DNA of 64,000 nt, from positions 2,320-66,319 of the forward strand of contig CAZRVT010000007.1 in assembly GCA_964603505.1 (NCBI GenBank), read 5' to 3'. This DNA is from an uncultured Holophagales bacterium (GTDB lineage: Bacteria > Acidobacteriota > Thermoanaerobaculia > UBA2201). The notes beneath the pieces were generated by a model. It saw only the letters and a program-made list of their open reading frames with translations. It did not search any database and was not told the origin of the DNA. How positions within the stretch are numbered: the stretch's first letter is position 1; the number at the start of each line of letters is the position of its first letter. The translations under genes were made by a program, and so were the position numbers. Below, piece after piece: positions 40,243 to 64,000 of the stretch.

Positions 40243-41241
40243 ATGATGACCTTCGTCTTCCTCATCATCGCCCTGGCCCTGTTGTTCGATTTCTTCAACG
40301 GGATGAATGACGCCGCCAATTCCATCGCCACCGTGGTGGCCACCCGCGTCCTGTCGCCGACCCTGGCGGTGGCCTGGGCCGCGTTCTTCAATTTCGCCGC
40401 CGCCTTCTTCTTCGGCGTCCATGTCGCCAGCACCATCGGGAAGGGGATCGTGCGCCCCGATGTGGTGGATGCTCCCCTGATCTTCGCGGCGGTGATGGCC
40501 GGGGTCGTTTTCACGGCCCTCGCCACCCACTGGGGCCTTCCCGTTTCCGTCTCCCACGCCCTCATCGGAGGGCTGGCGGGCTCGGCCGTCGCCAAGCTCG
40601 GGGGGCTGGACGGCCTCGTGTGGAAGGGGATCGCCAGGACCGGCGCGTTCATCTTTCTGGCCCCGCTCCTCGGGTTCACCGCCGCCGCCCTCTTCATCGT
40701 CGCCACGACCTGGATCGTCCGCCGCCGGGCGCCGTCCCGGGTGGACCGCTGGTTCAGGATCCTTCAGCTGGGCTCCGCCGCGGCGTACAGCCTCGGGCAC
40801 GGAACCAACGACGCTCAGAAGACCATGGGGATCATCGCCATCCTGCTCTTTTCCCAGGGAATGCTGGGGTCCGAGTTCCACGTGCCGATGTGGCTGGTTT
40901 TGCTCTGCCACCTGGTCATCGCGCTGGGGACTTTCATCGGCGGCTGGAAGGTCATCCGGACCCTGGGCGTCCGCATCGCCAAATTGCGCCCCATCGACGG
41001 GTTCTGCGCGGAGACGGCCTCGGCGCTCACCCTGTTCGGGACGGCCGCCGCGGGGATCCCCGCCTCCACCACCCACACCATCACCGGGGCCATCGTGGGC
41101 GTGGGTTCGGTCAAGCGCCTGTCGGCCGTCCGCTGGGGGGTTGCGGGCAATATCATCGCCGCCTGGGTCCTCACCATCCCTTTCACCACCGCCATCGGCT
41201 GGCTCGTCTATCGGCTCGTCGCCCTGCTGAGCCCGGCTTGA
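40243..41241 (+). CDS. pit: Inorganic phosphate transporter, PiT family
   Basis: FNGMNDAANSIATVV, GLPVSVSHALIGG, GHGTNDAQKTMG, GIPASTTH. Confidence 0.93.
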   Translation: MMTFVFLIIALALLFDFFNGMNDAANSIATVVATRVLSPTLAVAWAAFFNFAAAFFFGVHVASTIGKGIVRPDVVDAPLIFAAVMAGVVFTALATHWGLPVSVSHALIGGLAGSAVAKLGGLDGLVWKGIARTGAFIFLAPLLGFTAAALFIVATTWIVRRRAPSRVDRWFRILQLGSAAAYSLGHGTNDAQKTMGIIAILLFSQGMLGSEFHVPMWLVLLCHLVIALGTFIGGWKVIRTLGVRIAKLRPIDGFCAETASALTLFGTAAAGIPASTTHTITGAIVGVGSVKRLSAVRWGVAGNIIAAWVLTIPFTTAIGWLVYRLVALLSPA

Positions 41242-41257
41242 TCGCCGGGCCTTCCGC

Positions 41258-41926
41258 TCAGTCCGTCCGGTCCTCCGGGTGCAGGTGGCGCACCCATTTC
41301 CCCTCGACAAGGTAGATGACCATCTCGCCGATGTTGGTGGCGTGGTCGGCCAGCCGCTCCAGATATTTGGCCACGTAGGTGATGCGGGTGGCGCGGGGGA
41401 TGATGGTGGGATCCTGGACCATGAAGATCATCAGCTCGTTGAAGATCTGCACCGTCAAGGCGTCCACCTCGTCGTCCCGGCCGATGACCTCCCGGGCGAG
41501 GGCGGCGTCGCCGCGGACGAAGGCGTCGAGGGCGTCCCGCACCATCCGCCGGGCCGCCCCGGCCATGCGGGGAACGTCGATGTAGGGCTTGATGGGCGGC
41601 TCGGCCGCCAGTTCCACCGCCCGCTCGGCGATGTCCACCGCCAGGTCCCCCATCCGTTCCAGATCGGTGTTGATCTTCATCGCGGTGGTGATCAGCCGCA
41701 GGTCCCCCGCCTTGGGCTGGCGGCGGGCCAGGAGGCGGATGCACTCCTCGTCGATCTCGTTCTCGAGGGCGTTGACGGCGGCATCCTCCTCGATGACCCG
41801 GCGGGCCAGGGCCTCGTCCCGATCGGTGAGGGAGCGCACCGCCTCGCGCACGGCGGACTCCACCAGCCCCGCCTGCCGCAGGAGCATCTCCTTCAGGTGC
41901 GTCAGTTCAGCGTCGAATACCGTCAT
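41258..41926 (-). CDS. phoU: Phosphate signalling complex protein PhoU
   Basis: QPKAGDLRLI, DLERMGDLAVDIA, DDEVDAL, YLERLADHATNIGE; GGAGG RBS places the start near 41926. Confidence 0.95.
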   Translation of the reverse strand: MTVFDAELTHLKEMLLRQAGLVESAVREAVRSLTDRDEALARRVIEEDAAVNALENEIDEECIRLLARRQPKAGDLRLITTAMKINTDLERMGDLAVDIAERAVELAAEPPIKPYIDVPRMAGAARRMVRDALDAFVRGDAALAREVIGRDDEVDALTVQIFNELMIFMVQDPTIIPRATRITYVAKYLERLADHATNIGEMVIYLVEGKWVRHLHPEDRTD

Positions 41927-41996
41927 CATTGCCTCCGGCGGATGGCCGTTCCAGATTTCGCCGCCCCATGCCCGTCCCTCCTCTCCCATCCCTCTT

Positions 41997-42905
41997 CTAA
42001 CCGAATCTCCCCGTAATATACTCCTCCGTCAATTTCTGCGCCGGATTGGTGAAGATCCGGTCGGTGGCGTCGTACTCGATCAGCTTGCCCAGGTAGAAGA
42101 AGGCCGTGGTGTCGCTGACGCGGGCTGCCTGCTGCATGTTGTGGGTGACGATGACGACGGTGTAGTCGCTCTTGAGCTCCATGATCAGCTCCTCGATCTT
42201 CCCCGTGGCGATGGGGTCGAGGGCGGAGCACGGCTCGTCGAAGAGGATCACGTCGGGGCGGATGGCGATGGCGCGGGCGATGCAGAGCCGCTGCTGCTGG
42301 CCGCCCGACAGCGACAGGGCCGAGGCGAAGAGGCGGTCCTGGACCTCCTCCCACAGCCCCGCCTTCCTCAAACTGCTTTCCACCACCGCGTCCAGGACCT
42401 CCCGCTTCGACGTGCCGTTGATGCGGAGGCCGTAGGCGATGTTCTCGTAAATGGACTTGGGGAAGGGGTTGGGTTTCTGGAACACCATCCCGATGCGGCG
42501 CCGCACCTCGATGACGTCGGTGCCCTTCCCGTAGAGGTCGGTCCCCTCGTGGAGGATGCTGCCGGTCACCCGGAAGGAGGGGATGAGGTCGTTCATCCGG
42601 TTGAGGCAGCGGATGAAGGTGCTCTTGCCGCACCCCGAGGGGCCGATCATGGCCGTCACCGACTTCGGGGCGATGTCCAGGGTCACCCCGAAGAGGGCCT
42701 GTTTCTCGCCGTAGAAAACGTCGACGCCCCGGACGACGAACGCGGGCCCGGCGGGGCCCGGTTCGGGGGTTCCGGCGGAGACGGAGAGGGGGGCCTCCCC
42801 TTCCGACCGGCTTGAGGGAGCCTGGGTTTCCGGGCCGCCCGGGCCCGCCACGGCGGACGGGGGTAGGGGCGTGGGGACCGTCGGACCCGTCATCAATTGC
42901 ATCAT
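41997..42905 (-). CDS. pstB: Phosphate ABC transporter ATP-binding protein
   Basis: [63 protein letters not shown]. Confidence 0.96.
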
Positions 42906-42909
42906 GGCT

Positions 42910-43797
42910 TCACCACCTTATTTTCTTGCGGAAATGGTTGCGGACGAGGATGGCGACCCCGTTCATCACGAAGACGATGCCCAGGAGGACGATGATCCCC
43001 GCCGCCGCGTTGTAGGAGAAGGCCCGCTGGGGCCTCGACACCCAGTTGAACACCTGGATGGGGAGGGCCGTGAACGGGTCGAACAGCCCCTTGGCGGAGA
43101 GGAAGGGGAATTCCGCCGTCACCGGGTGCGCGGGGAGGAACGCGATGTAGGTCAGCGCCCCGATGGTGATGAGGGGGGCCGACTCCCCGATAGCCCGCGA
43201 CATGGCCAGGATGGTCCCGGTGAGGATCCCGGGCAGGGCCGCCGGCACGACCTGGTGGCGGACGGTCTGCCACTTGGTGGCCCCCACGGCCAAGGAGGCC
43301 TCGCGGATGGAAGGGGGGATGGCCCGCAGGGACTCGCGCGTGGCCATGACGATGACCGGGAGGACCAGGAGGGCCAGCGTCAGGCCGCCCGCCAGCACGC
43401 TCCGGCCCATGTGGAGGGTGCGGACGAAGATCCCCAGCCCCAGGAGACCGTAAATGATGGAGGGGACGGCGGCCAGGTTGGCGATGTTCATCTCGATCCA
43501 CCCGGCCAGACGGTTCTTTTTCCCGTATTCCTCCAGGTAGGTCCCCGCGGCGACGCCGAGGGGGAAGGCCACGAGGGCCGTGACCGCCATCAGCCACACC
43601 GTCCCCACCCAGGCGGAGAGGATGCCGGCCTCCTCGGGCTTCCGGGAGGGGAAGGTGGTCAGGAAGGTCCAGGAGAGGCGGGCGAAGCCGTCCTGGAAGA
43701 CGGTGTACAGCAGCCAGCCCAGGACGAACAGCCCCGCGATCGTGGCGACGAAGCCCACGACCTGGAACGAGCGGTCGAAGAACTTACTCGCGCGCAC
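42910..43797 (-). CDS. pstA: Phosphate ABC transporter permease
   Basis: GTG start after GGAGGAGG; [38 protein letters not shown]. Confidence 0.94.
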
Positions 43798-43820
43798 GGT
43801 TCCCTCCCTCCTCCGCTCCC

Positions 43821-43932
43821 CGTTCCTGGTTCCGGGTTCCGGGTTCCGGGTTGAAGAAATCCAGCCTGCCCGTCGCCAACGTATTCGAGGGGCGCGGGAA
43901 CCAGGAACAAGGAACTCGGAACTCGGAAACGG
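43821..43932. repeat. Inverted heptamer-repeat array in the pstC-pstA spacer
   Basis: GTTCCTG-GTTCCGG-GTTCCGG-GTTCCGG, about 45 nt of unique sequence, then GGGAACC-AGGAACA-AGGAACT-CGGAACT-CGGAAAC. Confidence 0.85.
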
Positions 43933-43934
43933 CA

Positions 43935-44828
43935 TTAATCATATTCTTCCCTGAACTTCTTCTTCAGCCAGTAGGAGAACATGTTGAAGACGAGGGTGAT
44001 AATGAACAAACTCATCCCGGCGGCGAAGATGGTGCGGTACTCGATGGTGCCGTAGGGGGTGTCGCCCAGGGAGACCTGGACGATGTAGGCGGTCACGGTC
44101 TCGACGCTGGCCAAGGGGTTGAGGGTCATCCGCGGCTGCTGGCCGGCGGCGATGGCCACGACCATCGTCTCGCCGACGGCGCGGGAGATCCCCAGGATAA
44201 AGGCCGAGCCCACGCCGGAAAGGGCGGCGGGGAGGACCACGCGGAGGGCGGTCTGCAGGCGGGTGGCCCCCACGGCCAACGAGCCCTCGCGCAGGGCCAC
44301 CGGGACGGCGGTGAGGGCGTCTTCGGAGAGGGAGGCGATGATGGGGATGATCATCACCCCCATCACCACGCCGGCGGAGAGGGCGTTGAACCCCGCCAGC
44401 TCGGGAATGAACTTCCGCAGGAAGGGGGTCACGGTCAGGAGGGCGAAATAGCCGTAGACGACCGTGGGGATGGCCGCCAGCACCTCGAGGGCGGGCTTGA
44501 TCGTGTTGCGCACCCGCGGCGGGGCGTATTCGGAGAGGTAGATGGCGCTCACCAGGCCCAGGGGGCCGGCCACCGCCATGGCGATCACGGAGGTGAGGAA
44601 GGTGCCGCAGAGCAGGGGGAGGATGCCGAAGTGCTTGTCCTCGAACAGCGGGGTCCACTGCGTCCCGGTGAGGAACTCCCACGGGGAGACCTCCCGGAAG
44701 AACTCGACCGTCTCGAACAGCAGGACGCCGACGATCCCGAAGGTGACGAGAACGGTCGCGAGGGCGCTCGCCAGGAGCGCCCCCTCGATCGTCCGTTCCC
44801 GAAACCGCTGGATGGTGCGTGCCGTCAT
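43935..44828 (-). CDS. pstC: Phosphate ABC transporter permease
   Basis: FGILPLLCGT, AIYLSEYA, LEVLAAIPTVVYGYFA, LSEDAL, ISRAVGETM. Confidence 0.95.
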   Translation of the reverse strand: MTARTIQRFRERTIEGALLASALATVLVTFGIVGVLLFETVEFFREVSPWEFLTGTQWTPLFEDKHFGILPLLCGTFLTSVIAMAVAGPLGLVSAIYLSEYAPPRVRNTIKPALEVLAAIPTVVYGYFALLTVTPFLRKFIPELAGFNALSAGVVMGVMIIPIIASLSEDALTAVPVALREGSLAVGATRLQTALRVVLPAALSGVGSAFILGISRAVGETMVVAIAAGQQPRMTLNPLASVETVTAYIVQVSLGDTPYGTIEYRTIFAAGMSLFIITLVFNMFSYWLKKKFREEYD

Positions 44829-44830
44829 AT

Positions 44831-44900
44831 GTTCAGGGTTCAGGGTTCAGAGAAAAAACCGGCATCCTTCACGCCTTTCTCTGAACGCTCAACTGTCTAC
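44831..44900. repeat. Second heptamer-repeat array in the pstS-pstC spacer
   Basis: GTTCAGG-GTTCAGG-GTTCAGA, then a degenerate inverted arm TCTGAAC-GCTCAAC-TGTCTAC. Confidence 0.7.
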
Positions 44901-44984
44901 TCCTTCGTTCATGGCGCGGAGGTTCGGAGTGGGGCCCCCCGGACCGGCGGGGCCCCTTCCCCGAACGCCGCAAACCGTTCAATC

Positions 44985-45971
<987 letters not shown>

Positions 45972-45993: not shown

Positions 45994-46048
45994 AAGTTAG
46001 TGCCGTTCCATGAAGCGAGCGTTAAGAAACGGTTAAGATTGCGTTAAG
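45994..46048 (-). promoter_or_regulatory. Pho-box-like array and -10 upstream of pstS
   Basis: Minus strand CTTAAC, CTTAAC, CTTAAC, CTTCAT (plus-strand copies start at 46043, 46032, 46021, 46010; 11-bp period), 10-nt gap, TAACTT. Confidence 0.8.
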
Positions 46049-46078: not shown

Positions 46079-46085
46079 GGGACGG

Positions 46086-47234
46086 TTAGATCTTGACGAT
46101 GAAGTCGATCTGGAACCGGGTCAGGTCCTTGTAGGCGTCGGTGGGATCTTCGATCCGGTCGGTGAGATAGACGGTGGCGCCGAGCGTGCTCCACTTGGTC
46201 GTGGCGTAGGTGAAGTCGAAGCGGTGGGACTCGCTGTTGGTGCCGATGGTGCAGTCGGACTGCACATAGGCGTAGAAGAGAGCTTCGGCCTCCATGTAGT
46301 AGTAGGTGTAGCGAACTTCCCATCCGCCCTTATCCTTGGTCCCTCCATACGAAGTCCGGAGCATGTAGGCGGTGTCCTCGTCGTTATAGGCGCCGTTGTT
46401 GACAAAGTAATGGCCGAAGAGGCCGAACTTGCCGGTCTTAAAGTGGATGAACCCCTCGACGATCTCGAAGTCGCTCTTGAGGGCCTCGAACTTGCCGTCG
46501 GCGGTCTTGGTGTAGGCGTTGGTCAGCGGGTTGCCCCCCATAATCTTTTCGTAGGTCAACCGGGCGAGCGCGTCGGGATTCTGGTATTCCTCGTAGGAGC
46601 CCCCGATGATAAAGCTCATGGAGTCGCTTTTCATCTCGTAGTAGGGCTGGAGGCCGAAAAGATAGGTCTCGTTGGCGGCGCTCTGCTCGCGCATCACGTA
46701 CTGGAACAGATTGACTTTGAGACGGTGCTCCGCCAATCCTGGGGCCTTCCCGGAGGAAAAGGCCAGGGATTCGGCGAGGCCTTCGACGTTCAGGTCGTCG
46801 TCCCACTCCATGTCGGCGTTGATCCTCGCCTTGTTGATGGGGAATTTTCCGGCATGCAGGGCGAAGAGCCCGGAGGGGGTCCAATCCACAAAGGCCTCGG
46901 CGATGCCGATGAACTTCTTGTTCGAGCCGCCGGTCAGGGTGGTGTTGTCCGACACGGGATCGCCATCCTGCTCGCCGGAGCGCAACCCGAGCGTGAAATT
47001 GGTGTTGTCGGAGAGCTTGGCGGAGAGCTTCAGACGGAGGCGGAACCGCTCGCGGAACCGGTCATCCTTTCCGTCCTGCATGAACCCCTCGTAGCGCAGA
47101 CGGAAGTCGCCGCCGAGCTTGATCTTCTCGTACCACTCCTTCTTCTTGGGCTCTTCCTTCTTGGGGGCCGGGGCCTGCGCCCACGCCAGGGAGCCGATGA
47201 TCAGGATCGCTGCGATGCTCAGAAAACGCTTCAT
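46086..47234 (-). CDS. Putative outer-membrane porin (likely phosphate/anion uptake)
   Basis: Signal peptide, IKLGGDFRLRYE, RERFRLRL, alternating beta strands, C-terminal FQIDFIVKI; directly upstream of pstS. Confidence 0.8.
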   Translation of the reverse strand: MKRFLSIAAILIIGSLAWAQAPAPKKEEPKKKEWYEKIKLGGDFRLRYEGFMQDGKDDRFRERFRLRLKLSAKLSDNTNFTLGLRSGEQDGDPVSDNTTLTGGSNKKFIGIAEAFVDWTPSGLFALHAGKFPINKARINADMEWDDDLNVEGLAESLAFSSGKAPGLAEHRLKVNLFQYVMREQSAANETYLFGLQPYYEMKSDSMSFIIGGSYEEYQNPDALARLTYEKIMGGNPLTNAYTKTADGKFEALKSDFEIVEGFIHFKTGKFGLFGHYFVNNGAYNDEDTAYMLRTSYGGTKDKGGWEVRYTYYYMEAEALFYAYVQSDCTIGTNSESHRFDFTYATTKWSTLGATVYLTDRIEDPTDAYKDLTRFQIDFIVKI

Positions 47235-47267: not shown

Positions 47268-47322
47268 AGTGTACGGGCCCCCCGTTAAGAAATGATGAAG
47301 ATTTCATGAAGGGTCGGTGAAG
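47268..47322 (-). promoter_or_regulatory. Pho-box-like array and -10 upstream of the porin gene
   Basis: Minus strand CTTCAC, CTTCAT, CTTCAT, CTTAAC (plus-strand copies start at 47317, 47306, 47295, 47284), 10-nt gap, TACACT. Confidence 0.8.
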
Positions 47323-47356: not shown

Positions 47357-47584
47357 ATGCCCGCCCCTTCCCCCCGCACCGCCGGGAATGCCCGTGACCG
47401 GTTGCCCCTCGCCGCCTCCCTCGCTGGTTCCGCCCTCCCCTTCTACTCGGAGTTCGGCTTGGACACCCTCGGCGTGCTCATAGAGGCGGCGGTGGCCGCC
47501 ACCGTCGCGGCCCACGCGGCCAACACCCTCTTCAAGCAGGCGGTGCAGGCGCTGGCCGGCGCCATCCTGCCGGCCCTGGGCTAG
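47357..47584 (+). CDS. Possible small hydrophobic protein or gene remnant
   Basis: 75-aa ORF with an Ala/Leu-rich C-terminal half and GC3-biased codons; no clear RBS. Confidence 0.3.
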   Translation: MPAPSPRTAGNARDRLPLAASLAGSALPFYSEFGLDTLGVLIEAAVAATVAAHAANTLFKQAVQALAGAILPALG

Positions 47585-47613: not shown

Positions 47614-47668
47614 CTTCACCGATTCTGAACACGCCCTTCATCAAACCCTAACCGTCCTCCCGTACCGT
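47614..47668 (+). promoter_or_regulatory. Pho-box-like array and -10 upstream of olsB
   Basis: CTTCAC (47614), CTGAAC (47625), CTTCAT (47636), CCTAAC (47647), 10-nt gap, TACCGT. Confidence 0.72.
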
Positions 47669-47715: not shown

Positions 47716-48573
47716 ATGTGGCTTGACTCCGCCCTGCGACCCTTCCCCGGCCTGTTCCGTCCCCGGCCCCAGCCGCCCCTGCGCCTCCCCACCAAGCTCA
47801 ACGCGTTCCAGCCCCGCATCCAGTTCAATCTCGCCAAAGGGCGCTATGCCGTCCGCACCGCCGGCGACCCGTCCGACCTGGCCCGCGTGCTCCGGCTTCG
47901 GCACGAGGTGTTCTATGAGGAGCTGCTCCACCGCGCCACGCGCACGGGCCTCGATTGGGACCGCTACGACCTAAAGGCCGATCACCTGATGGTGGAGGAC
48001 CAGGTCACCGGGCGGCTCATCGGCACCTACCGGGTCATCACCTCGCTCCATTCGAACACCTTTTACTCCCAGAGCGAGTTCAAGATGCGGTCCATGCTGG
48101 CGCTGCCCGGCGTGAAGATGGAGCTGGGGCGCGCCTGCGTCCACCCCGACCACCGCAACGGCGCCACCATCCTCCTGCTTTGGCGCGGGATCAGCGCGTA
48201 CCTGAAGGCCTGCGGCGCCCGATGGCTTTTCGGCTGTTCCTCCCTCAAGGCCGTGGACCCCGTGACGGTGAATCTGGTCTATCGCTACCTGCACCAGAAC
48301 CATGCGGTCGGCCCGAGGATGCGGGTGCGCCCCCGGCGGAAGTTCCGCTACCCCGGGCTGGACCGGGCCCCCGAGGCGCGGTCGCTGACCGAGGCCGAGA
48401 CGGCGCAGGCCCGGGAGCGGATCCCCTCCCTGCTCCAGGCCTACCTGCGGGCGGGGGCGGTGGTCGGTGGGGAGCCCGCCTTGGACCGCGACTTCCAGTG
48501 CGTGGATTTTTTCACCCTCCTCGACGTCTCCCGGCTCGACGCCGCCGTGGAGCGGAAGTACCAAGTATGCTGA
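47716..48573 (+). CDS. olsB: GNAT-family N-acyltransferase, OlsB-like (aminolipid/ornithine lipid synthesis)
   Basis: GAGGAGG RBS; LRLRHEVFYEE, DWDRYD, HLMVED, IGTYRV, FYSQSEF, MELGRACVHPDHRNG, LFGCSS, PSLLQAYLRAGA, DRDFQCVDF. Confidence 0.78.
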   Translation: MWLDSALRPFPGLFRPRPQPPLRLPTKLNAFQPRIQFNLAKGRYAVRTAGDPSDLARVLRLRHEVFYEELLHRATRTGLDWDRYDLKADHLMVEDQVTGRLIGTYRVITSLHSNTFYSQSEFKMRSMLALPGVKMELGRACVHPDHRNGATILLLWRGISAYLKACGARWLFGCSSLKAVDPVTVNLVYRYLHQNHAVGPRMRVRPRRKFRYPGLDRAPEARSLTEAETAQARERIPSLLQAYLRAGAVVGGEPALDRDFQCVDFFTLLDVSRLDAAVERKYQVC

Positions 48574-49394
48574 GGGCCCTCTGGAGGGGGCCGCTCCTGG
48601 CGGTCCTGATCGCGGCCTTCCTGGCCTCGGGCGCCGCGGTCCGCCTTCTGTCTCCGGCCCGGTCCCGGCGGGGACGGCAGGCGCGGCTGACGGGCTTCTT
48701 CGCCCGGCAGGCCCTCGCGCTCCTGGGGGTCCGGGTCGTCCGTGCCGGCCGCCCCATGGCCCGGGGGGGGCTGCTGGTGGCGAACCACCTCTCCTATCTG
48801 GACATCTTGGTCTGGGCGTCGCTGCGTCCCGTTCTGTTCGTGACCTCCATGGAGGTGGGGGCCGACCCCTTCCTGGGCCTCCTGGCCCGTTTGGGGGGGA
48901 GCGAGTTCGTGGAGCGGCGCCGCCCGTCGGGCCTGCGGGGCGAGATCGACCGCCTCTCCCGCCGGCTGTCGGACGGGAACACGGTGATGCTCTTTCCGGA
49001 GGGGACCTCCACGGACGGCTCCCGCATCCTCCCTTTCAAAGCGGGCCTGATGGAATCGGCCCTGCGGGCGGGCGTCCTGATCCAGCCCGCGTGTCTGAGG
49101 GTCGTCGCGGTCGGCGGGCGCCCCTTCGTCCCCGGGGCGGACGACCGGTGGTGCTGGCACGGCCGGATGCGCTTCCTCCCCCACCTCCTCCGCGTCCTCT
49201 CCACCTCCTCGTTTGAGGTTTCCGCCCGGTTCCTGCCCCTTCTCCGCCCCTCCGAGGAGGCCTCCCGCAAGGACGCGGCCGAGGCCGCCCACTTCTTCGT
49301 GGCCCTGGCGTACGAAGCCGGCCGATGCGCCGACCCGGCGGCCGGAGGGCCGGCCCCGTCCGCATGCGCCGAGGCGGGCACGGGGGCGGCCTGA
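48567..49394 (+). CDS. olsA: PlsC/OlsA-family lysophospholipid O-acyltransferase
   Basis: Overlaps olsB; ANHLSYLDI (HX4D), FPEGTSTDG, FKAGL, IQPACL. Confidence 0.78.
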   Translation: MLRALWRGPLLAVLIAAFLASGAAVRLLSPARSRRGRQARLTGFFARQALALLGVRVVRAGRPMARGGLLVANHLSYLDILVWASLRPVLFVTSMEVGADPFLGLLARLGGSEFVERRRPSGLRGEIDRLSRRLSDGNTVMLFPEGTSTDGSRILPFKAGLMESALRAGVLIQPACLRVVAVGGRPFVPGADDRWCWHGRMRFLPHLLRVLSTSSFEVSARFLPLLRPSEEASRKDAAEAAHFFVALAYEAGRCADPAAGGPAPSACAEAGTGAA

Positions 49395-49454: not shown

Positions 49455-49733
49455 GTGAAGAAGAAGCCCTCTCCCCCGCAGAAGAGCCCCCGCCGCGTCG
49501 GCGCGCCAGGCGCCCGCCGCCCAGCGGGGCCCTCCATGGCGGAGGTGCGGAGCCGGGCCCGGGCCCACGGCATCCCCATCCTCCGGCGCACCAAGCAGGA
49601 CCTGATCCGCGCGATCCAGATCGCCGAAGGCAACTTCGACTGTTTCGGCACCGCCTTGAGCGGGGAGTGCGACCAGGAGAACTGCTCATGGAGGGGGGCC
49701 TGCCTGGACCGGCCGCACAGGACGAGCCCATAG
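49455..49733 (+). CDS. Small SAP/Rho-N-like domain protein with a four-cysteine C-terminal motif
   Basis: AGGAGG RBS, GTG start; TKQDLIRAIQIAEGNFDCFGTALSGECDQENCSWRGAC. Confidence 0.75.
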   Translation: MKKKPSPPQKSPRRVGAPGARRPAGPSMAEVRSRARAHGIPILRRTKQDLIRAIQIAEGNFDCFGTALSGECDQENCSWRGACLDRPHRTSP

Positions 49734-49788: not shown

Positions 49789-51621
49789 TCAGAGTTCCAT
49801 GCAGGCCAGGTGATCCTGTGAATGTTTGGCCCGCCGCTTGAGCTCGGCCAGCAGGCCGCCGACCGCGTCCGGGGACAAGGCGGGCCCGGCGGCGCGGACG
49901 AAGAGGATGGCCGCGGAGGCCTCCAAGGTCCGATAGCGTTGGAAACGGCCGCGCCGGTCAAGGGCCCGGAATCCGCCGGACTCCAACGCCGCCCGGGAAT
50001 GGAAGGCCAGGGCATCGCCCCGGAACTTTTCCAGAAGACCGCGCACGAACGCCACCACCCCCTCCGGCCCGGCCTCGTCCATCGGGACGGAAACGATGAA
50101 GTCGTCCCCGCCGATATGACCCAGAAAACAATCCCGGCCCGCCGAAGCGGCGCGCAATAGGTCGGCCATCAAGAGGAGGATGCGGTCGCCGACCCGGAAG
50201 CCGTGCACGTCGTTGAACGGCTTGAAATGGTCGATGTCGAGATAGATCAAGGCCCGCCCCTCCCGCCGGGTGAGCACATCGGAAAGATGCTCGTGGATGG
50301 TGCGGTTTCCCGGGAGGCGGGTGAGGGGGTTCTGCTCGCGGGCGAGGGCGAGGTTCTTTTCGTTCATGGCGTGGAGAAGGGCCCGGGCCGAGAGGAATCC
50401 GGCGTAGGCCCCTTCGTGCGTGAGCAGGACCCCCTCCGCCGCCGGGTCCAAGGCCAGCATTTCCAGGATGGACTCCACCCGCGATTCGAGGGGGGCGACG
50501 GGGGCGGGGGAAACGAAGTCCGCCACCCGCTTCCCTAAGGAACGGTTCATCAGGAGGTCGCGGCCGTAGGGGGAATAGACATACTCCTTCAGGTCCCGCT
50601 CGGTGAGGAGGCCGAGCGGCCGCCGCTGGGCATCGACCACGGGGAAGTGGCTGCGGTCCTTGTTCCGGCGGAAGATTTCGAACACGTCCCGCAGGGAGGA
50701 GGCGGGGAATTGGATGGGTTCGGGAGTTTCCATCCAGCCCCGGAGAAGGTCTCGGTCGTGGCCGCGGGTCCGGCGGTCCGCCGCCACCAGGCGCCCCACC
50801 GCCTCGTAACGGGCGAGGACCTCTTCCGGGGCCATCGTCGGCCGGGCCACCCAGAACCCCTGCACATAGTCGCAGCCGATCTCCCGGCAGACCCTGAATT
50901 CCGTCTCGGTCTCCACCCCCTCGGCGATGACCTGGATGCCCAGCGTATGCGCCAGGCTGACCACGGTGGAAATGAAGAGCGCCTTCTTGGGCTCGCGGTC
51001 CACGCCGCGCACGAAGAACTTGTCCAATTTCAGGTAGTCGGGCTCGAGCCGGTAGAGCAGTTGGAGACCCGCGTAGCCGGAGCCGAAATCGTCCACGGCC
51101 ACCCGGTAGCCCTGCTGGCGGTACAGGGCGAGGAGGTCGCCGTCCTCCGTCCGGTCGTAGAACCGCTGGTGCTCGGAGATCTCGAAGCACACCGCCCCCA
51201 GCGGCAGGCCCTGCGCTCCGAGAAGGGATTGGGTCATGCCCGGAGTGAAGTCGGGCATGGAGGAGACGCGGGGGTCGACGTTGAGGAACAGGAGCTGGCG
51301 CTCATGCCCCGGCAATCGGACGAACCGTTCCACGGCCCGGCGCCGGAGGTGGAGCTCGAGGCGGAACAGCGTCCCCTCCTTCACGGCGGCGTCCAGCAGG
51401 GCGTGGACCGTCGGAAAGCCGGCCTGCTCTTGGCGCCGGGCCAGCGCCTCCACCCCGAGGCACACCCCCGTGTGGACGTTGACGATGGGCTGAAAGGCCA
51501 CTTCCAGGATTTCGACGATCCTGCTCCATCGCTCGTCGGACCCTTCGGCTTCCCGACGAGGAGGCGGCGCGGCGTTCCCGTCGTCGGAGGGACAGAGGAA
51601 CCGATCGCCGGCAGGGGGCAT
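49789..51621 (-). CDS. EAL-CBS-GGDEF c-di-GMP turnover protein (start approximate)
   Basis: AFQPIV, VEALAR, DDFGSGY, YLKLDK, IAEGVET, QGF; CBS-like HFPVVD; NPLTRLPGN, DIDHFKPFND, GHIGGDDF. Confidence 0.88.
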   Translation of the reverse strand: MPPAGDRFLCPSDDGNAAPPPRREAEGSDERWSRIVEILEVAFQPIVNVHTGVCLGVEALARRQEQAGFPTVHALLDAAVKEGTLFRLELHLRRRAVERFVRLPGHERQLLFLNVDPRVSSMPDFTPGMTQSLLGAQGLPLGAVCFEISEHQRFYDRTEDGDLLALYRQQGYRVAVDDFGSGYAGLQLLYRLEPDYLKLDKFFVRGVDREPKKALFISTVVSLAHTLGIQVIAEGVETETEFRVCREIGCDYVQGFWVARPTMAPEEVLARYEAVGRLVAADRRTRGHDRDLLRGWMETPEPIQFPASSLRDVFEIFRRNKDRSHFPVVDAQRRPLGLLTERDLKEYVYSPYGRDLLMNRSLGKRVADFVSPAPVAPLESRVESILEMLALDPAAEGVLLTHEGAYAGFLSARALLHAMNEKNLALAREQNPLTRLPGNRTIHEHLSDVLTRREGRALIYLDIDHFKPFNDVHGFRVGDRILLLMADLLRAASAGRDCFLGHIGGDDFIVSVPMDEAGPEGVVAFVRGLLEKFRGDALAFHSRAALESGGFRALDRRGRFQRYRTLEASAAILFVRAAGPALSPDAVGGLLAELKRRAKHSQDHLACMEL

Positions 51622-53328: not shown

Positions 53329-54024
53329 TTAACGGCCATGGGCCGTTTCCGGCGTTCCGCGGGAGGCGGCCCGCACGAACCGTCCCGTCCAGGAACGGCC
53401 TTCCGTCAGGGAGATGCCGGAGAGCTCCGTCCCTCCCCGGCGCCGGGGAACCGCCGTCGCTCCGGGGCAGTCCCGGCACTCCCATCCATCCAGGACCACC
53501 GACACGGGCACCTGCCGGCGCCCGGCGGTGGTCCGGTCGGCCACGAGGATCTCCAGCGCCTCTCCGGAAGGAAGGGGGGCCTCCAGCACCACGGTGCCTT
53601 CGATGCGCTCGTGCCCCCGGACCGGACCGTCCGATCCGGAGGAGGAAAGGGCGGTGCGGCGCAGTTCCGGGACCGCCCCGTTGCACTGGATGCGCAGGTC
53701 CTTGAGGATGAGCGCCGACAGGTGCTCCTCCAATTCCCTCCGCTCTTCCTCCTCCAGCCCTCCGCTCCCGTCCCGGTCGAACCGTTCCCGCAGAGGCCCG
53801 GTCTCGTCCCCGTGGTCGAGGACGAGGGTCAGGATCACGCGCACCCGGTCCGGCAGGACCTCCAGCCGGTCCTGCTTGGGATACTGCACCCAATGGCCGA
53901 AGGCCCCGCCGGCGGCGAGGACCAGGGCAATGAGAAGGAACAACCCCTCGATGGAAAAAGGGACCCGCCCCCCGGCGGGCGCGGCCGGGGGCGGGTCGAG
54001 GGGAGAGTATTGATGGGCCGTCAT
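53329..54024 (-). CDS. Membrane-anchored hypothetical protein
   Basis: Start MTAHQY; TM segment GLFLLIALVLAAGGAFG; EF-hand-like FDRDGSGGLEEEE. Confidence 0.65.
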   Translation of the reverse strand: MTAHQYSPLDPPPAAPAGGRVPFSIEGLFLLIALVLAAGGAFGHWVQYPKQDRLEVLPDRVRVILTLVLDHGDETGPLRERFDRDGSGGLEEEERRELEEHLSALILKDLRIQCNGAVPELRRTALSSSGSDGPVRGHERIEGTVVLEAPLPSGEALEILVADRTTAGRRQVPVSVVLDGWECRDCPGATAVPRRRGGTELSGISLTEGRSWTGRFVRAASRGTPETAHGR

Positions 54025-59079: not shown

Positions 59080-59134
59080 AGTGTCGGGCATTCGTGTAAA
59101 TATTGACTAAGGATTCGGTTTGGATTGCGTTAAT
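59080..59134 (-). promoter_or_regulatory. Degenerate Pho-box-like array facing the PHP hydrolase gene
   Basis: Minus strand ATTAAC, CCAAAC, CCTTAG, ATTTAC at 11-bp period, 10-nt gap, GACACT. Confidence 0.4.
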
Positions 59135-59166: not shown

Positions 59167-59234
59167 CTTCCGGCCGGCTTCATCGGAACTTTACCCATTC
59201 TTAGCCCAAACCGAACAATCGTGGATGATATTAT
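59167..59234 (+). promoter_or_regulatory. Pho-box-like array and extended -10 upstream of the SPFH gene
   Basis: CTTCCG (59167), CTTCAT (59178), CTTTAC (59189), CTTAGC (59200), CCGAAC (59211), then TGaTATTAT. Confidence 0.6.
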
Positions 59235-59389
59235 TGTTGCAAAGTGCTCGCCTTCCATTCCTGCATGGGCACCGGGACGGCTTCCTTTCAGCGCTTCAGA
59301 GCCGACCCGGGAGTTTCGCTGGTGGGGCGGACCCAGCCCCCGCGGCGGCCTTATTCCCGCCGGGCATCTCTATTTTTTAGGAGGAGACG

Positions 59390-60268
59390 ATGATGATCAT
59401 TGTCGGTTTGTTGATGGGCGTTCTCACCGCCGCGGCATGGTGGCTGGCCTCCATGGTCCGCGGCCGCGGGCCGGTCCCGGTCCGCCGTCTGGCCGCGGTG
59501 GCGGCGGCCTGGTTGGCCTTCGGCCTGGCCGCCGCCGCGGTCCGCATCGTCCCAGCGGGCCATGTCGGCGTTTTGGATTTGTTCGGCCGCATCAGCCCCC
59601 AGCCCCTCGCTTCGGGGCTGCACCTGGTGAATCCGCTGAGGCAGGTCCACCGCATGGACATCCGTACCCAGGAGGTCAAGGAGACCGCCGATTCCCCTTC
59701 CCAGGAGGGGCTCAACATCCACTTGGAGGTCTCCCTCTGGCTCCAGGTCATCCCGGAGCAGGCGCCGGAGGTGTACCGGACCATCGGGACGGATTACCTT
59801 CAAAAGATCGTCATTCCCTCGTTCCGATCGGCTCTGCGCAACACCACCGCCCGACACGAGGCCAAGGCGCTGTACACGGGGGCCCGCGAATTGATCGCCG
59901 AGGAGGTGCAGGGAACGCTGAAGCCCCTGCTGAAGGCCCGGGGGATCGAGGTCCAAAGCGTGATGCTTCGCAAGGTGGAACTCCCGCCGCGCGTCGCCGA
60001 AGCGGTCAACCAGAAGCTGGCCGCGGAGCAGGAGGCGGAGCGGATGAAGTTCGTCCTCCAGAAAGAGCGGCTGGAAGCCGAGCGCAAGGCGATCGAGGCG
60101 GAGGGGATCGCTCAGTTCCAGCGCATCGTCTCCCAGGGGATCACCCCGACCTACCTGGAGTGGAAGGGGATCGAGGCGACCCTGAAATTGGCCGAGTCGG
60201 CCAACGCCAAAACGGTCGTGGTCGGCAATCCCAAAAACGGCCTGCCCCTCATCCTCTCGGGGCAATGA
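59390..60268 (+). CDS. SPFH/prohibitin (band 7) family membrane protein
   Basis: AGGAGG RBS; IVPAGHVGV, SGLHLVNP, SQEGLNI, AVNQKLAAEQEAERM, AIEAEGIA, YLEWKGIEA. Confidence 0.92.
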   Translation: MMIIVGLLMGVLTAAAWWLASMVRGRGPVPVRRLAAVAAAWLAFGLAAAAVRIVPAGHVGVLDLFGRISPQPLASGLHLVNPLRQVHRMDIRTQEVKETADSPSQEGLNIHLEVSLWLQVIPEQAPEVYRTIGTDYLQKIVIPSFRSALRNTTARHEAKALYTGARELIAEEVQGTLKPLLKARGIEVQSVMLRKVELPPRVAEAVNQKLAAEQEAERMKFVLQKERLEAERKAIEAEGIAQFQRIVSQGITPTYLEWKGIEATLKLAESANAKTVVVGNPKNGLPLILSGQ

Positions 60269-60364
60269 GGCGCTTCCAGGCCCCCATCGAGGGGCGATGC
60301 CCGCGGAGCAGGAGTGCAGGGGAGCGCCTTCTCCAGAGGGAGGCCATCGATGGGCCGATTTGAA

Positions 60365-61762
60365 ATGACCGCCAGGCCCCGGGATCGGCAGCCCGATCGG
60401 GCGGGGCGGACCGCGCTTGCCGGCATCCTCCTGTGGATCGTCGCCGCCGGGGGGGCGGGGGTTGACCTGCAGGTGCAATTCGACGTGCCCGGGGGGCCCC
60501 TGAGAAACCTCAACGGCGTGAACAACGGGCCGCGCTGTTTGACGGCCGTGGGGGACTGCGATTACTGCGAAGCCCACCGGGCCATGGGGATCCCGGCCGT
60601 GCGCACGCACGATTTATACGGGCCCACGGATTGGGACCATATCTTCCCCGATTTCTCCCGCGATCCGGACGATCCCGCCAGCTACAATTTTTCGGATTCC
60701 GACCCCTACCTGCTGGCCATCTCCGCGTGCGGGGAGGAAATCTTTTTTCGGATGGGCGTTTCCTGGGGAGGCAGTCCGATTCCGCCGGCCGACCCCGCCA
60801 AGTGGGCGCGGATCGCCGTCCGGATCCTTCAGCACTACAATGACGGCTGGGCGGACGGGTTTCATTTAGGGATCCGGGAGGTGGAGATTTGGAACGAGCC
60901 CGACATCTCGTTGTTCTGGCGGGGAACGCCGCGACAGTATTTTGCGATGTACGAGCGGGCCGCCCGAGCCATTAAGTCCTACGATCCCGCCATCCGGGTC
61001 GGGGGGCCCGGGCTGTGCTGCGACCTCGGCTTCCTGAGGGAGTTTCTCGAGACCTGCCGGAAGGAATCGATTCCCCTGGATTTCGTCTCCTGGCACCACT
61101 ACAGCTCCCAAAGCGAGGCGTATGATCCTTCCGCGCTGAAGAAGTGGGGCCTTTACATCAAGTCCTTGCTGACCAACGCGTATGGTTTTCCGGACACGGG
61201 GAACTATCTGACCGAGTTCAATCGCTCCCTAAAAGACGACGAATTGGAGAACAACTTGAATCTGACGGGAGCGGCCTGGAGCGCGGCCGCCCTCATCCAC
61301 TTGCAGGACGGCGCGGTGGACGCGGCCTTCCGCTACCGGGGGGATGTCCATCCCCTGGGAATGTGGTGGCCGGCCGACCGCGCCTGGCCCGTCCAAGAGG
61401 CATACGCCGCGATGGCCGGAATGCACCGCCTCTCGATGCGCGCATCGATCCGGGGGCTCGGCCGCTGGGTCCCGGAGTCGGCCTTGGCGGGATGCGACGC
61501 CGGAGGACGGGAGTGCCGGATCCTCCTGGCGGATCCGGCGGCGGGCCCTGGAAATCACATCCTCCGCCTGTCGGGCCTGGCCCACGGCCCTTGGGCGGTC
61601 ACCGTCAAGCGTCTGTCGGAAAGCGGCTGGAGGGTGCTGCGCGAGGAGGTCCACCCCGGACCGGAATTCACTTTAGATTTTTCCGCCCCAGCGCCCTTCA
61701 CCGCCGTAGTGGAGTTGCACGGGCCCGGCTCGGAGCACACCCGCCCCACGCCTCCCCCCTGA
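60365..61762 (+). CDS. GH39-like glycoside hydrolase (start uncertain)
   Basis: GVNNGP, VRTHD, EIWNEPD (acid/base), RVGGP, DFVSWHHY, LTEFN (nucleophile). Confidence 0.8.
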   Translation: MTARPRDRQPDRAGRTALAGILLWIVAAGGAGVDLQVQFDVPGGPLRNLNGVNNGPRCLTAVGDCDYCEAHRAMGIPAVRTHDLYGPTDWDHIFPDFSRDPDDPASYNFSDSDPYLLAISACGEEIFFRMGVSWGGSPIPPADPAKWARIAVRILQHYNDGWADGFHLGIREVEIWNEPDISLFWRGTPRQYFAMYERAARAIKSYDPAIRVGGPGLCCDLGFLREFLETCRKESIPLDFVSWHHYSSQSEAYDPSALKKWGLYIKSLLTNAYGFPDTGNYLTEFNRSLKDDELENNLNLTGAAWSAAALIHLQDGAVDAAFRYRGDVHPLGMWWPADRAWPVQEAYAAMAGMHRLSMRASIRGLGRWVPESALAGCDAGGRECRILLADPAAGPGNHILRLSGLAHGPWAVTVKRLSESGWRVLREEVHPGPEFTLDFSAPAPFTAVVELHGPGSEHTRPTPPP

Positions 61763-62021
61763 CGCTATTCCGTTCCATCGGGGACCAGGGGCCCGTGAAG
61801 ACGCATCCTGATGGGCCCTGACGCCTGGACGCTCCGGGTCAACGGAGCGGTCCGCGCCTTCGCCACCGTCAAGACGGGTCCGTTCCAGCCCTCCCCCGGC
61901 TCTGCTTCCACCGGGCAACGGGCCGCCGGCTTCCGGGGAGGCCCGGTCGCACCGGCGGAGGAGACCCGCCACGGACTCGAAGCGTAAAGGCGAGGAGCGG
62001 TTCGGATTGGGAGGATCCCGT

Positions 62022-64000
62022 TCAGGCCTCGGTGGGTTGGGGCGCCAGCCGTGGGAACGGCCAAGGGGCCCAGGCCGCCGCCTCCTCCGGGTCCGGTTCC
62101 GGCTTGGGGTCATGCTCCGGGTCGGGGGGATCGGGCCACAGGCGGAAGGGGGGGATCCGCTGCGGCTCGCAAAGCTCGGCCAGGGCACGATCCCAGCCGC
62201 AACGCTCCACGGCCCGGTCCCGGGCGGCCTGCCGCATGGCCGCCATCGCTTCAGGGCGCTCCACCTCCATCCGCTCCATGTCGAGGAGCGCCCCGACCCA
62301 TGCCTTGAGGTCCCCGGCCGGCAGGATGTACCCCGTCCGCGCATGATCCACCAGGTCCTGCGGCCCGCCCCGATCGGACACCAGGGCCGGCACGCCGCAG
62401 GCCATCGCTTCGGCCACCGCCATGCCGAAGGTGTCGGTGGTGCTGGGGAACACGAACGCGTCGGCGGCCGAGTACCATTCGGGCAGGTCCTCCCACGGCA
62501 GGCGTCCGGCGAAGAGGACGCGGGAAAGGCCGCCCACTTTGCGGCGGAATTCCTCCAGATCCGGGCCATCTCCGGCGAGGATGAGGTTGACGGCGGGCAG
62601 GCGCCGGGCCAGCTCCCGGTAGACCTGGATCAGGAAGCCGATCCCCTTGTCCTCGGAGATCCGCCCGGCGTAGAGGAGCGTGAAGCCCGCCGGCAGGCCC
62701 GTGCGCTGTCGCAGGCGCTTGGAGGCGCCCTCGCGCGGGGTGAACAGTCCGGTGTCCAACCCGTGAGGGAACAGAGCGATGCGTTCGGTGCGGTAGCCCC
62801 GCTCCCGGAGGAGGCGGGCGTAGTGGGGGGTGGCGACCCGCACCTCGTCCATCGCCCCGTAGAACCAGCGGAGTCCCGCCTCGAGCGTCGCGAGCAGCGA
62901 CTCGTCGCCGGTGATGGCCCGGGCCTGGAGGGTGAAATCGGTGTGATAGAACCCGACCGCGGGGACGTTCAGAAGGCGGGCGTAGAGGAGGCCGAGGAGC
63001 CCCACGGGCCCGGGGGTGGAGATGTAGACGATGTCAGCCTCGGAGGCCTGGAGGCGGTCCAACGCTCCAAGGACCGACGGCACCCGGAGAAGGTATCGCT
63101 CGTAGTAGGGCAGGGGGAACACATGGATGGCCGGCAGGTCCTCCACACGGGCGGAGGGCAGGTCCGCCGGCAGCGGCCTGTTCAGGGAAGTAACCAGACG
63201 CAACTCCATCCCCCGGGCCTCGGCCGCCCGAAGGATCCCCTGGAGCGTCACTCCGACCCCGTTGAGGTCGGTCAGGGTGTCGGTGAACCAGAGGATCCGC
63301 TTCCCCTGCTTTTCGGCGGGCGCTTTCAGGGCCCGGCCGGCCTCCTCCAGGAGCTCGCGCCCCTGGAACAGGTGCCGCAGGGTGGTGAAGAACGGGACGC
63401 AGAGGAAGATGCCGGGCAGGGCCCCGGCGATATTGCGCACCATGCCCGCCAGGTCGCCTTCCTTGACGTGGCGCTCGGCGGAGCGGAGGAGCGCCTTGAG
63501 GAACTCGTCGCTGACGCGGGTCAGGCCCGGGTAGAGGTGTTCCAGCCGGTCCGCCACCGGGGCCCCCGTGCCGGCCTTGACCTGGTCCACCAGGTCCAGC
63601 CAGGCCGATTGGAGGCCCTCCTCCCTCCCCTTGCCGAGGAGGCGGAGGCGCGCCACCTTCCAGCGGTTCTGGATGCTCATGGACTTCCGTTCGAAGAGAG
63701 AAGCGGCCAGCTGGTCGATCAGGGTCCCGGCCGCCGATCCGGCCTTGGTTTTGGAGAAGTCGTAGGCGACCTTGTAGACCGTGAAGGCGAGGGCCTTGAA
63801 GTCGCTCGACCGCCCGGCCGGTTCGGACCGCTTCGCTCGGATCGCCTCCAGAAAGGCGGCCATCCCCTCCCCTTCGGCCACGGTGTGCGCCCGCCCGACG
63901 AACAGACCGCCGTGGTCGTCCGAGCCGCCCGTCAACCCCTTGACCCAGGGGGTTTCGGGGGTGGGTTCGATCCGGTGGCGGCGCCGGAGGTCCTCGATCT
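62022..64000 (-). CDS. PHP-domain/GT4 glycosyltransferase fusion (N-terminus outside the window)
   Basis: Frame is open to the window edge. PHP end motif GLTGGSDDH; GT-B motifs FTDTLTDLNGV, STPGPVG, YHTDF, LYAGRISEDKG, FPSTTDTFGMAVAEAMACGVP. Confidence 0.85.
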   Translation of the reverse strand, partial: IEDLRRRHRIEPTPETPWVKGLTGGSDDHGGLFVGRAHTVAEGEGMAAFLEAIRAKRSEPAGRSSDFKALAFTVYKVAYDFSKTKAGSAAGTLIDQLAASLFERKSMSIQNRWKVARLRLLGKGREEGLQSAWLDLVDQVKAGTGAPVADRLEHLYPGLTRVSDEFLKALLRSAERHVKEGDLAGMVRNIAGALPGIFLCVPFFTTLRHLFQGRELLEEAGRALKAPAEKQGKRILWFTDTLTDLNGVGVTLQGILRAAEARGMELRLVTSLNRPLPADLPSARVEDLPAIHVFPLPYYERYLLRVPSVLGALDRLQASEADIVYISTPGPVGLLGLLYARLLNVPAVGFYHTDFTLQARAITGDESLLATLEAGLRWFYGAMDEVRVATPHYARLLRERGYRTERIALFPHGLDTGLFTPREGASKRLRQRTGLPAGFTLLYAGRISEDKGIGFLIQVYRELARRLPAVNLILAGDGPDLEEFRRKVGGLSRVLFAGRLPWEDLPEWYSAADAFVFPSTTDTFGMAVAEAMACGVPALVSDRGGPQDLVDHARTGYILPAGDLKAWVGALLDMERMEVERPEAMAAMRQAARDRAVERCGWDRALAELCEPQRIPPFRLWPDPPDPEHDPKPEPDPEEAAAWAPWPFPRLAPQPTEA

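Follow-up and report, generated by a model that had tools for sequence, protein, structure and literature searches.

The window described here, a stretch of 64,000 nucleotides (64 kb) of metagenomic DNA, carries in its last 24 kb a group of genes for phosphate uptake, membrane lipids and several uncharacterized protein families. Together with the adjoining part of the contig, this group very probably constitutes a real phosphate-starvation (Pho) regulon, physically clustered in an island of about 32 kb. Apart from the identities of the genes, the evidence consists of tandem 11-bp repeat arrays, a fixed promoter geometry, conservation in relatives and the recurrent linkage to phosphate genes of two island members: a giant exported protein with a PHP-type metallohydrolase domain and a fusion of a PHP domain with a GT4 glycosyltransferase (PHP-GT4). 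Both families probably recur among the genes with which bacteria respond to phosphate starvation. A first-pass annotation of the same DNA had proposed a clustered Pho regulon that recruits uncharacterized genes. This proposal is supported by the exceptional character of the boxes, by their match to the SphR box and by their fixed distance to the -10 element. It is further backed by the arrays retained in the diverged DNA of a close relative (contig L014), by the continuation of the island into ppx, CHAD and PPK2 genes and by the phosphate linkage in other lineages.

Repeat arrays and promoter geometry

Four strong arrays, each made of four direct 11-bp repeats (CTTMAY-N5), precede pstS, the porin gene, the olsB-like gene and the SPFH gene (Table 1), and no other such arrays occur on either strand of the 64 kb. 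The giant gene is faced by a fifth array, a weak one, in line with the earlier count of 11-bp-period boxes at up to five promoters. The strongest array is the one upstream of pstS. A position weight matrix was derived from the 12 units of the pstS, porin and olsB arrays and scanned over both strands of the whole window. The SPFH array, absent from the training of the matrix, is recovered at a score of 26.2, and the next best site in the 64 kb scores 4.3. A three-unit IUPAC pattern with up to three mismatches gives 8 matches, all inside the four strong-array places, whereas on dinucleotide-preserving shuffles the same pattern yields a mean of 0.13 and never more than one.

The general Pho box is built of 11-nt units (PMC4415409), a structure that the units of the window fit. 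In Synechocystis the SphR box is CTTAACCT; three or more of these 8-bp repeats stand in tandem, separated by 3-bp linkers (PMC1906773). The unit core CTTAAC of the window arrays equals this box.

At the level of sequence, a -10-like hexamer (TAnnnT or GAnnnT) starts exactly 5 nt past the fourth unit at all six promoters (6/6), including that of the PHP-GT4 gene just past the window. A consensus scan of the array-bearing intergenic regions detects no canonical -35/-10 promoter. The arrays thus appear to stand in for the -35 element, which is the layout of activator-dependent promoters of the PhoB/SphR type. The SPFH array is located about 170 nt from the start codon. The predicted SPFH leader (window 59222-59389) is about 150 nt long and its counterpart in L014 about 160 nt; the leader is rich in G+C, and its sequence is not conserved.

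The close relative that carries L014 is known from short contigs (L014, L015 and L016) and shares approximately 81-93% protein identity with the window, around 90% overall. L014 has the same gene layout as the window, namely GH39, SPFH and the divergent giant gene, with an intergenic region of 490 bp that is largely unalignable with that of the window. Both divergent promoters of L014 bear four-unit arrays (scores 25.8 and 25.6), with the -10 hexamers GACACT and TAATAT at the same +5 offset. The weak giant-gene array of the window aligns with a strong L014 array, and it is this homologous array, the position and the -10 hexamer that mainly back the weak one. The PHP-GT4/ppx intergenic region of L015 and L016 is 97% identical to that of the window and is too close to inform.

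Past the window, the contig carries the rest of the PHP-GT4 gene, its promoter array (ACTCAC, CTTAAC, CCTGAC, CCTTAC; score 21.5) and a divergent operon, faced by a two-unit array, that encodes ppx/GppA-HD, two thymidylate-kinase-like proteins, a hypothetical protein and CHAD; next comes a PPK2 gene. The phosphate theme thus extends over about 32 kb (about 24 kb of them in the window) and takes in polyphosphate turnover. A chimeric assembly at the GH39/PHP-GT4 junction was considered and is unlikely, as the independent Logan contig L002 spans SPFH, GH39, PHP-GT4 and ppx.

The tandem thymidylate-kinase-like pair is also found in a distant organism (L018 5227-6635; L001 16878-18247 for the pair just past the window). 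In L018 it is placed between a His_Phos gene and ppx-pstCAB-phoU. By its gene context, the pair is a conserved module tied to polyphosphate and phosphate genes.

Two uncharacterized PHP families with phosphate linkage

The giant protein begins with a signal peptide, followed by a conserved N-terminal region of about 470 residues, a CarboxypepD_reg domain and a PHP/CehA metallohydrolase domain (residues 472-832). Then come a DUF5689/ExeM-NucH-like domain, two fn3-like purple-acid-phosphatase-N domains, a PKD domain and a lamin-tail domain. The protein reaches 181 bits against the CehA/McbA model NF038032 (cut-off 80), and its metal ligands are invariant among relatives (D-x-H-x-H, DH, E, H, NHP and D-T-H). 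A sequence search of solved structures gives no match. The model of the catalytic region (predicted local distance difference test, pLDDT, 86; predicted template-modelling score, pTM, 0.86) retrieves with Foldseek BVU_3505, the PHP domain of RNase AM, TM0559, the PHP domains of PolC and Pol III, and Cv1693. All of these are PHP phosphoesterases with nucleotides or nucleic acids as substrates. The lamin-tail region is about 50% identical to the tails of exo/endonuclease, 5'-nucleotidase and NS-endonuclease proteins. The presumed role of the giant enzyme is to free phosphate from phosphoester polymers outside the cell, for instance DNA or RNA.

The nucleases ExeM and NucH are the nearest described counterparts. 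ExeM combines a lamin-tail domain, an OB-fold region and a nuclease domain (PMC6085458). Like these enzymes, the giant protein is exported and multi-domain, with a lamin-tail domain and an ExeM/NucH-like, putatively nucleic-acid-binding domain. Unlike them, it has a PHP/CehA catalytic domain instead of an exonuclease-endonuclease-phosphatase (EEP) domain, is twice as large and possesses the conserved 470-residue N-terminal region. No EEP domain is found in it, and the match to NF033681 is confined to positions 1-116, with 26 bits against a cut-off of 300.

Full-length relatives of the giant protein are rare, about 12 among 5.8 billion proteins, and come from genome bins of Acidobacteriota and Binatia. 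In 5 other genomes a homologue of hyp231 lies directly after the giant gene. Phosphate-related neighbors recur: a divergent 5'-nucleotidase and olsBA (L004 and L007), PhoD (L006 and L012), and, in a Binatia bin (L010 2447-5849), a PstS-like binding domain fused to OmpA (642 residues) together with HD and PhyH proteins, which presumably resemble the phosphonate-oxidation pair PhnZ/PhnY. L010 also carries a PHP-GT4 homologue near the giant-gene orthologue. The window matrix detects no arrays in the distant relatives. A consensus-free periodicity search finds in L007 and L009 that the only three-unit CGTSAC arrays in 25 kb precede the giant gene; these arrays are five units long, with TATAAC or TAAAAC at +5, and by eye a similar array is present upstream of the giant gene in L100. 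The unit CGTCAC is one base away from the CTTCAC of the window.

The second family, PHP-GT4, is spread over many phyla and numbers more than 2,400 members about 800 residues long. These have the full architecture, with identities of 43-52%, and carry no annotation beyond glycosyltransferase. A literature search for a PHP-glycosyltransferase fusion returned nothing relevant. In the N-terminal PHP domain, D6, H8, H10, H89, H128 and D205-D206-H207 are invariant in the family; this domain finds no match in a sequence search of solved structures. In the model (pLDDT 84, pTM 0.82), residues 1-245 form a PHP barrel and residues 410-790 a GT-B fold, joined by a long linker of helices (245-400). Among GT4 enzymes of known structure, the nearest are BshA, MshA, sucrose-phosphate synthase, HepE, GlgM and PimB', a set that does not separate lipid from soluble acceptors.

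From the metagenome contigs scanned, 80 PHP-GT4 loci were kept. In 10 of the 80, genuine pst or phoU genes lie within 8 kb, and at least two pst genes do so in 6 loci versus about 0.4 expected. Other neighbors are ppx or CHAD (three loci), olsBA (one, L068) and EAL-GGDEF homologues (four). A 44%-identical member is placed opposite His_Phos, two thymidylate-kinase-like genes, ppx, pstCAB and phoU. Scored with the window matrix, the 300 bp upstream of PHP-GT4 are the top-scoring window of the locus in 19 of 74 loci, versus 1.35 expected. The control for spacing, run on 69 distinct upstream regions from the 80 loci plus L017 and L018 with a score threshold of 13, is decisive: 17 of the 69 have arrays at or above the threshold at 11-bp spacing, whereas spacings of 7-10 and 12-15 give 0-2 and the opposite strand 6. 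In the high-scoring regions, TAnnnT peaks 5 nt past the third or fourth unit. On a 4.3-Mb contig, the units CTTCAT, CTTCAC and CTTCAT stand 124 nt upstream of PHP-GT4 and form the only strong array in 18 kb.

PHP-GT4 would spare or recycle phosphorus, perhaps by converting phospholipid to glycolipid in one polypeptide, or perhaps by making and dephosphorylating a glycoside phosphate. In the first case it would resemble the PlcP-Agt lipid renovation pathway, in which a phosphoesterase is likewise coupled to a glycosyltransferase behind a Pho box and near phosphate-starvation genes (PMC4796936, PMC8528852). PHP-GT4 differs in that both activities are fused in one protein of 836 residues, with a PHP domain in the place of PlcP as phosphoesterase. 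Therefore, it is not a member of that pathway, although by analogy it may work similarly.

The second case, a bifunctional glycoside-phosphate synthase and phosphatase instead of a lipid-remodelling enzyme, is a plausible contender that falls somewhat short of probable. The GT4 domain would glycosylate a phosphorylated small acceptor and the PHP domain would take the phosphate off, following the logic of sucrose-phosphate synthase/phosphatase or of MshA/MshA2; this would yield a neutral sugar and liberate phosphate from the pools of sugar phosphates. Small or phosphorylated acceptors are used by the GT4 enzymes of known structure that are closest in sequence and fold, namely sucrose-phosphate synthase (6kih), the maltose-1-phosphate synthase GlgM (6tvp), MshA and BshA. 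The linker of the model is a soluble-looking helical bundle, and no transmembrane segment was noted in the model, though none was specifically looked for. However, glycolipid synthases of phosphate starvation are often paired with a phosphoesterase that supplies diacylglycerol and with Pho boxes, as in PlcP-Agt. Moreover, the lipid-acceptor enzymes PimA and PimB' are also among the fold matches, and one PHP-GT4 relative is linked to olsBA.

The lipid-remodelling reading can be joined to that of the giant protein. PHP-GT4 would be a PhoB-controlled, single-polypeptide phosphorus-sparing enzyme, whose PHP domain may strip the phosphate head group from a phospholipid and whose GT4 domain may glycosylate the resulting diacylglycerol. 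The giant PHP/CehA protein and its partner of 200-230 residues would make up a new class of extracellular nucleases or phosphodiesterases, under Pho control and present in Acidobacteriota and Binatia. In this joint form the proposal is tentative, and rather unlikely to hold in full.

Gene content of the island

The contig that carries the window is JGI (Joint Genome Institute) Ga0484935_000224 (74 kb, freshwater metagenome), in which a window position equals the record position minus 2391. The base composition of the window is 63-76% G+C, and real genes were picked by third-position G+C and frame plots. All genes of the first-pass list (pit, phoU, pstSCAB, the porin gene, the olsB/olsA-like genes, the giant PHP hydrolase, SPFH, GH39 and PHP-GT4) are real and lie where they had been placed; the list had missed the EAL-CBS-GGDEF gene, four hypothetical genes and two or three small open reading frames (ORFs). 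The hypothetical genes and small ORFs have no Pfam or NCBIfam match, even at E<=1. No response regulator or histidine kinase is present among the window genes scanned, in agreement with the earlier remark that phoB and phoR are missing from the window.

Table 1. Genes and repeat arrays of the phosphate region, in window coordinates
Feature	Position	Strand	Evidence, units and -10 hexamer at +5
pit, low-affinity phosphate transporter (PHO4 family)	40243-41241	+	Pfam PF01384, E 8e-88
pstS-pstC-pstA-pstB-phoU operon	41258-45971	-	NCBIfam equivalog/subfamily models, all above cut-offs
phoU	41258-41989	-	PhoU score 229, cut-off 130
pstB	41997-42905	-	PstB score 402, cut-off 343
pstA	42910-43935	-	PstA score 280, cut-off 193
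pstC	43935-44828	-	PstC score 282, cut-off 196
pstS	44985-45971	-	PstS family score 311, cut-off 207
Array before pstS	46005-46048	-	CTTAACgcaat CTTAACcgttt CTTAACgctcg CTTCATggaac; TAACTT
Outer-membrane porin (Porin_5), signal peptide, own Pho-box promoter	46086-47234	-	Pfam PF16930, E 6e-23
Array before porin	47279-47322	-	CTTCACcgacc CTTCATgaaat CTTCATcattt CTTAACggggg; TACACT
Array before olsB	47614-47657	+	CTTCACcgatt CTGAACacgcc CTTCATcaaac CCTAACcgtcc; TACCGT
olsB-like N-acyltransferase	47716-48573	+	Best NCBIfam match OlsB, E 3.5e-40; Pfam PF13444/PF01553 for the olsB/olsA pair
olsA-like O-acyltransferase	48567-49394	+	Best NCBIfam match OlsA, E 1.5e-42; overlaps olsB-like gene
Small Cys-rich protein, 65 aa, 3' of olsA	49536-49733	+	
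EAL-CBS-GGDEF protein	49789-51621	-	
hyp179	51651-52190	-	Frame plot, ORFs, JGI gene calls
hyp217, signal peptide	52187-52840	-	Frame plot, ORFs, JGI gene calls
hyp123, membrane	52852-53223	-	Frame plot, ORFs, JGI gene calls
hyp231, conserved partner of giant gene	53329-54024	-	Frame plot, ORFs, JGI gene calls
Giant exported protein, 1,664 aa	54038-59032	-	CehA/McbA PHP-type metallohydrolase domain
Weak array facing giant gene	59091-59134	-	ATTAAC, CCAAAC, CCTTAG, ATTTAC; GACACT
Array before SPFH	59178-59221	+	CTTCAT, CTTTAC, CTTAGC, CCGAAC; GATATT
SPFH/Band-7 membrane protein	59390-60268	+	
GH39-like glycosidase, membrane-anchored	60350-61762	+	
PHP-GT4 fusion, C-terminal 658 aa in window (full length 836 aa)	62022-64000, runs off window	-	Array past window; TACGAT

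The PstSCAB-PhoU transporter is complete, with its five components (5/5) over the model cut-offs and in operon order. The olsA-like protein has an HX4D motif (NHLSYLD) and a PEGT motif, and the pair is predicted to make a phosphorus-free acyloxyacyl aminolipid. As in the OlsB/OlsA ornithine-lipid pathway, a GNAT-type N-acyltransferase and a PlsC-type O-acyltransferase are encoded by adjacent, overlapping genes. Unlike the characterized pairs, those of the window score under the equivalog cut-offs (138 versus 350 for OlsB and 146 versus 300 for OlsA). Induction of OlsBA by low phosphate is described in several bacteria (PMC12186959, PMC12971839).

The giant gene, hyp231, hyp123, hyp217, hyp179 and the EAL-CBS-GGDEF gene follow each other on the - strand, with gaps that are short or absent, and a single six-gene operon with the EAL gene last is therefore likely. 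The EAL protein, with intact EAL and DDFGSG motifs and a degenerate GGDEF motif (GGDDF), is probably a cyclic di-GMP phosphodiesterase transcribed with the giant gene. RapA of Pseudomonas fluorescens is reportedly a Pho-regulated EAL cyclic di-GMP phosphodiesterase that links phosphate limitation to surface behavior. Unlike RapA, the window protein adds a CBS and a degenerate GGDEF domain, and the case for its Pho control comes only from its position in the likely operon. On the opposite strand, SPFH and the GH39-like gene likely form one operon, and the pairing of the two holds in the close relative.

The 65-residue protein encoded after olsA (MAEVRSRARAHGIPILRRTKQDL...CFG...C...C...C) has homologues at L094 ~4450, L098 ~3312 and L079 ~10015, and is found elsewhere directly 3' of PHP-GT4 in two loci. 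This Cys-rich protein may be a small partner or regulator. Within the 290 bp separating the porin and olsB arrays, positions 47357-47584 (+) have a coding-like third-position G+C of 0.90; JGI predicts a 41-residue gene at 47459-47584 (+), and a real small protein may be encoded there.

Directly upstream of pit are a GDSL lipase/acylhydrolase gene (39349-40161, +) and a ParA/MinD-like ATPase gene (38596-39231, +), neither with an array. Farther away, positions 22085-34280 (-) encode a TonB-dependent-receptor-like outer-membrane protein, a sulfatase-TPR protein, two PF01663 phosphodiesterase/pyrophosphatase-TPR proteins and a thioredoxin-like protein. This run of genes may be another scavenging unit for organic phosphorus or sulfur; no CTTMAY array precedes its TonB-dependent-like, sulfatase and PF01663 phosphodiesterase genes.

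The Pho-regulon reading, its rivals and its meaning

In the proposed response, low phosphate would activate a PhoB/SphR-type response regulator of the OmpR family, presumably PhoB, encoded elsewhere. The regulator would bind three or four direct 11-bp repeats (CTTMAY plus five variable bases) head-to-tail at the -35 position of at least six promoters and would recruit RNA polymerase to these promoters, which have no -35 element. The units switched on would be pstSCAB-phoU, for high-affinity uptake; the porin gene; olsBA with the small protein, for the phosphorus-free aminolipid; the giant PHP phosphoesterase with hyp231, three hypothetical genes and the EAL phosphodiesterase; SPFH with the GH39-like gene; the PHP-GT4 fusion; and probably ppx, the two thymidylate-kinase-like genes and CHAD, for polyphosphate turnover. 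Subsequently, phosphate would be taken up through the opened porin and the Pst transporter, and the secreted giant phosphoesterase would release phosphate from polymeric organic phosphorus, probably nucleic acids. Phospholipids would be exchanged for the aminolipid (OlsBA) and possibly for a glycolipid (PHP-GT4), polyphosphate would be mobilized by Ppx, PPK2 and CHAD, and the EAL protein would lower cyclic di-GMP.

Several observations weigh against this reading. The absence of phoB and phoR from the window means that the regulator and the signal are deduced from the similarity of the boxes and from the pstS target. The pit gene has no box at the two-, three- or four-unit level, and the giant-gene array of the window has a background-level score (2.4-7.1). 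The relatives of the giant gene are mostly not adjacent to pst, and three of them (L005, L011 and L100) have no phosphate genes within 10 kb. Around three quarters of the PHP-GT4 loci are without an array by the window matrix; the box type of these organisms may be a different one, or PHP-GT4 may lie outside Pho control in them. A GH39 relative (L099, 50% identical) has no SPFH neighbor and no convincing array. In L015 (5814-7446) PHP-GT4 is followed by PGA_cap and DMP19 genes in place of GH39 and SPFH, which indicates that the blocks of the island are shuffled even among close relatives and that their adjacency is not conserved. As for transcripts, only 5-6% of the pstS words are present in the metatranscriptome runs listed, so the reads come from other organisms; the DNA runs are metagenomes of freshwater.

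It is improbable that the arrays, although real, serve another OmpR-family regulator with another signal, such as envelope stress, another nutrient or growth phase, and that the neighborhood is a co-regulated envelope or nutrient island instead of a Pho regulon. No regulator gene lies in the window, many regulators of this family bind direct repeats with about 11-bp phasing, and nothing intrinsic ties SPFH, GH39 or the EAL protein to phosphate. Nevertheless, it is pstS, the most universal of PhoB targets, that has the strongest array upstream, and the core matches an experimentally defined SphR box. The box-bearing units also cover olsBA, a phosphoesterase and ppx, and elsewhere the same type of array precedes PHP-GT4 genes adjoining pst-phoU.

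Slightly less credit still is due to the view that only pstS and the porin gene are functional Pho targets, with the rest of the arrays weak or vestigial and the remaining genes neighbors by chance or island assembly, without shared regulation. In its favor, the giant-gene array is degenerate, the SPFH array is about 170 nt from its start codon and the block order differs in the close relative. Against it, the scores of the olsB and SPFH arrays are far over background, L014 keeps arrays at both divergent promoters despite the diverged DNA around them, the -10 hexamer has the same offset for all arrays, and arrays recur upstream of orthologues in other genomes.

As a Pho regulon, the island shares with the PhoB/PhoR (SphR/SphS) regulon the 11-nt direct repeats that replace the -35 element at a fixed distance to the -10 element, and targets that include pstS, a porin, a phosphoesterase and polyphosphate genes. 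It differs in that the island arrays have four units, the regulator genes are outside the window and several targets belong to uncharacterized families. No described Pho box for Acidobacteriota was found in the literature consulted; the host is probably an uncultured member of this phylum.

The first-pass annotation had regarded the region as a candidate for an undescribed system, which is overstated, as phosphate-related genomic islands are already described (PMC10734472). The flexible islands of HIMB59 reported there likewise cluster a pst operon with phosphorus-related cargo (phosphatase, ppk/ppx, lipid-related genes) that varies from one close relative to the next. In contrast, the present island spans about 32 kb versus up to 18.5 kb, is without phoBR and has shared boxes at its promoters; its cargo also differs in olsBA, the giant PHP exo-enzyme, SPFH-GH39, PHP-GT4, CHAD and PPK2. 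Pho regulons, Pho boxes, phosphate islands, the induction of OlsBA by low phosphate and PlcP-Agt with Pho boxes are therefore known. What is new is the cargo, namely the giant PHP exo-enzyme, which is rare and has a conserved partner, and the very widespread PHP-GT4 fusion tied here to phosphate starvation across lineages.

The regulon itself will not surprise a specialist; the two enzyme families are worth testing. The ways in which abundant uncultured bacteria of soil and freshwater, such as the Acidobacteriota, cope with phosphorus scarcity are largely inferred from model Proteobacteria and cyanobacteria. For such an organism the island supplies a readable Pho-box grammar, a compact list of co-regulated genes and two testable enzyme candidates. 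The function of PHP-GT4 is directly testable owing to its recurring Pho-box-like arrays and its pst and ppx neighbors, and the giant PHP exo-enzyme may represent an unrecognized route of phosphate release from extracellular organic phosphorus. If these proposals are true, the two uncharacterized families would be widespread, unrecognized arms of the bacterial response to phosphate starvation.

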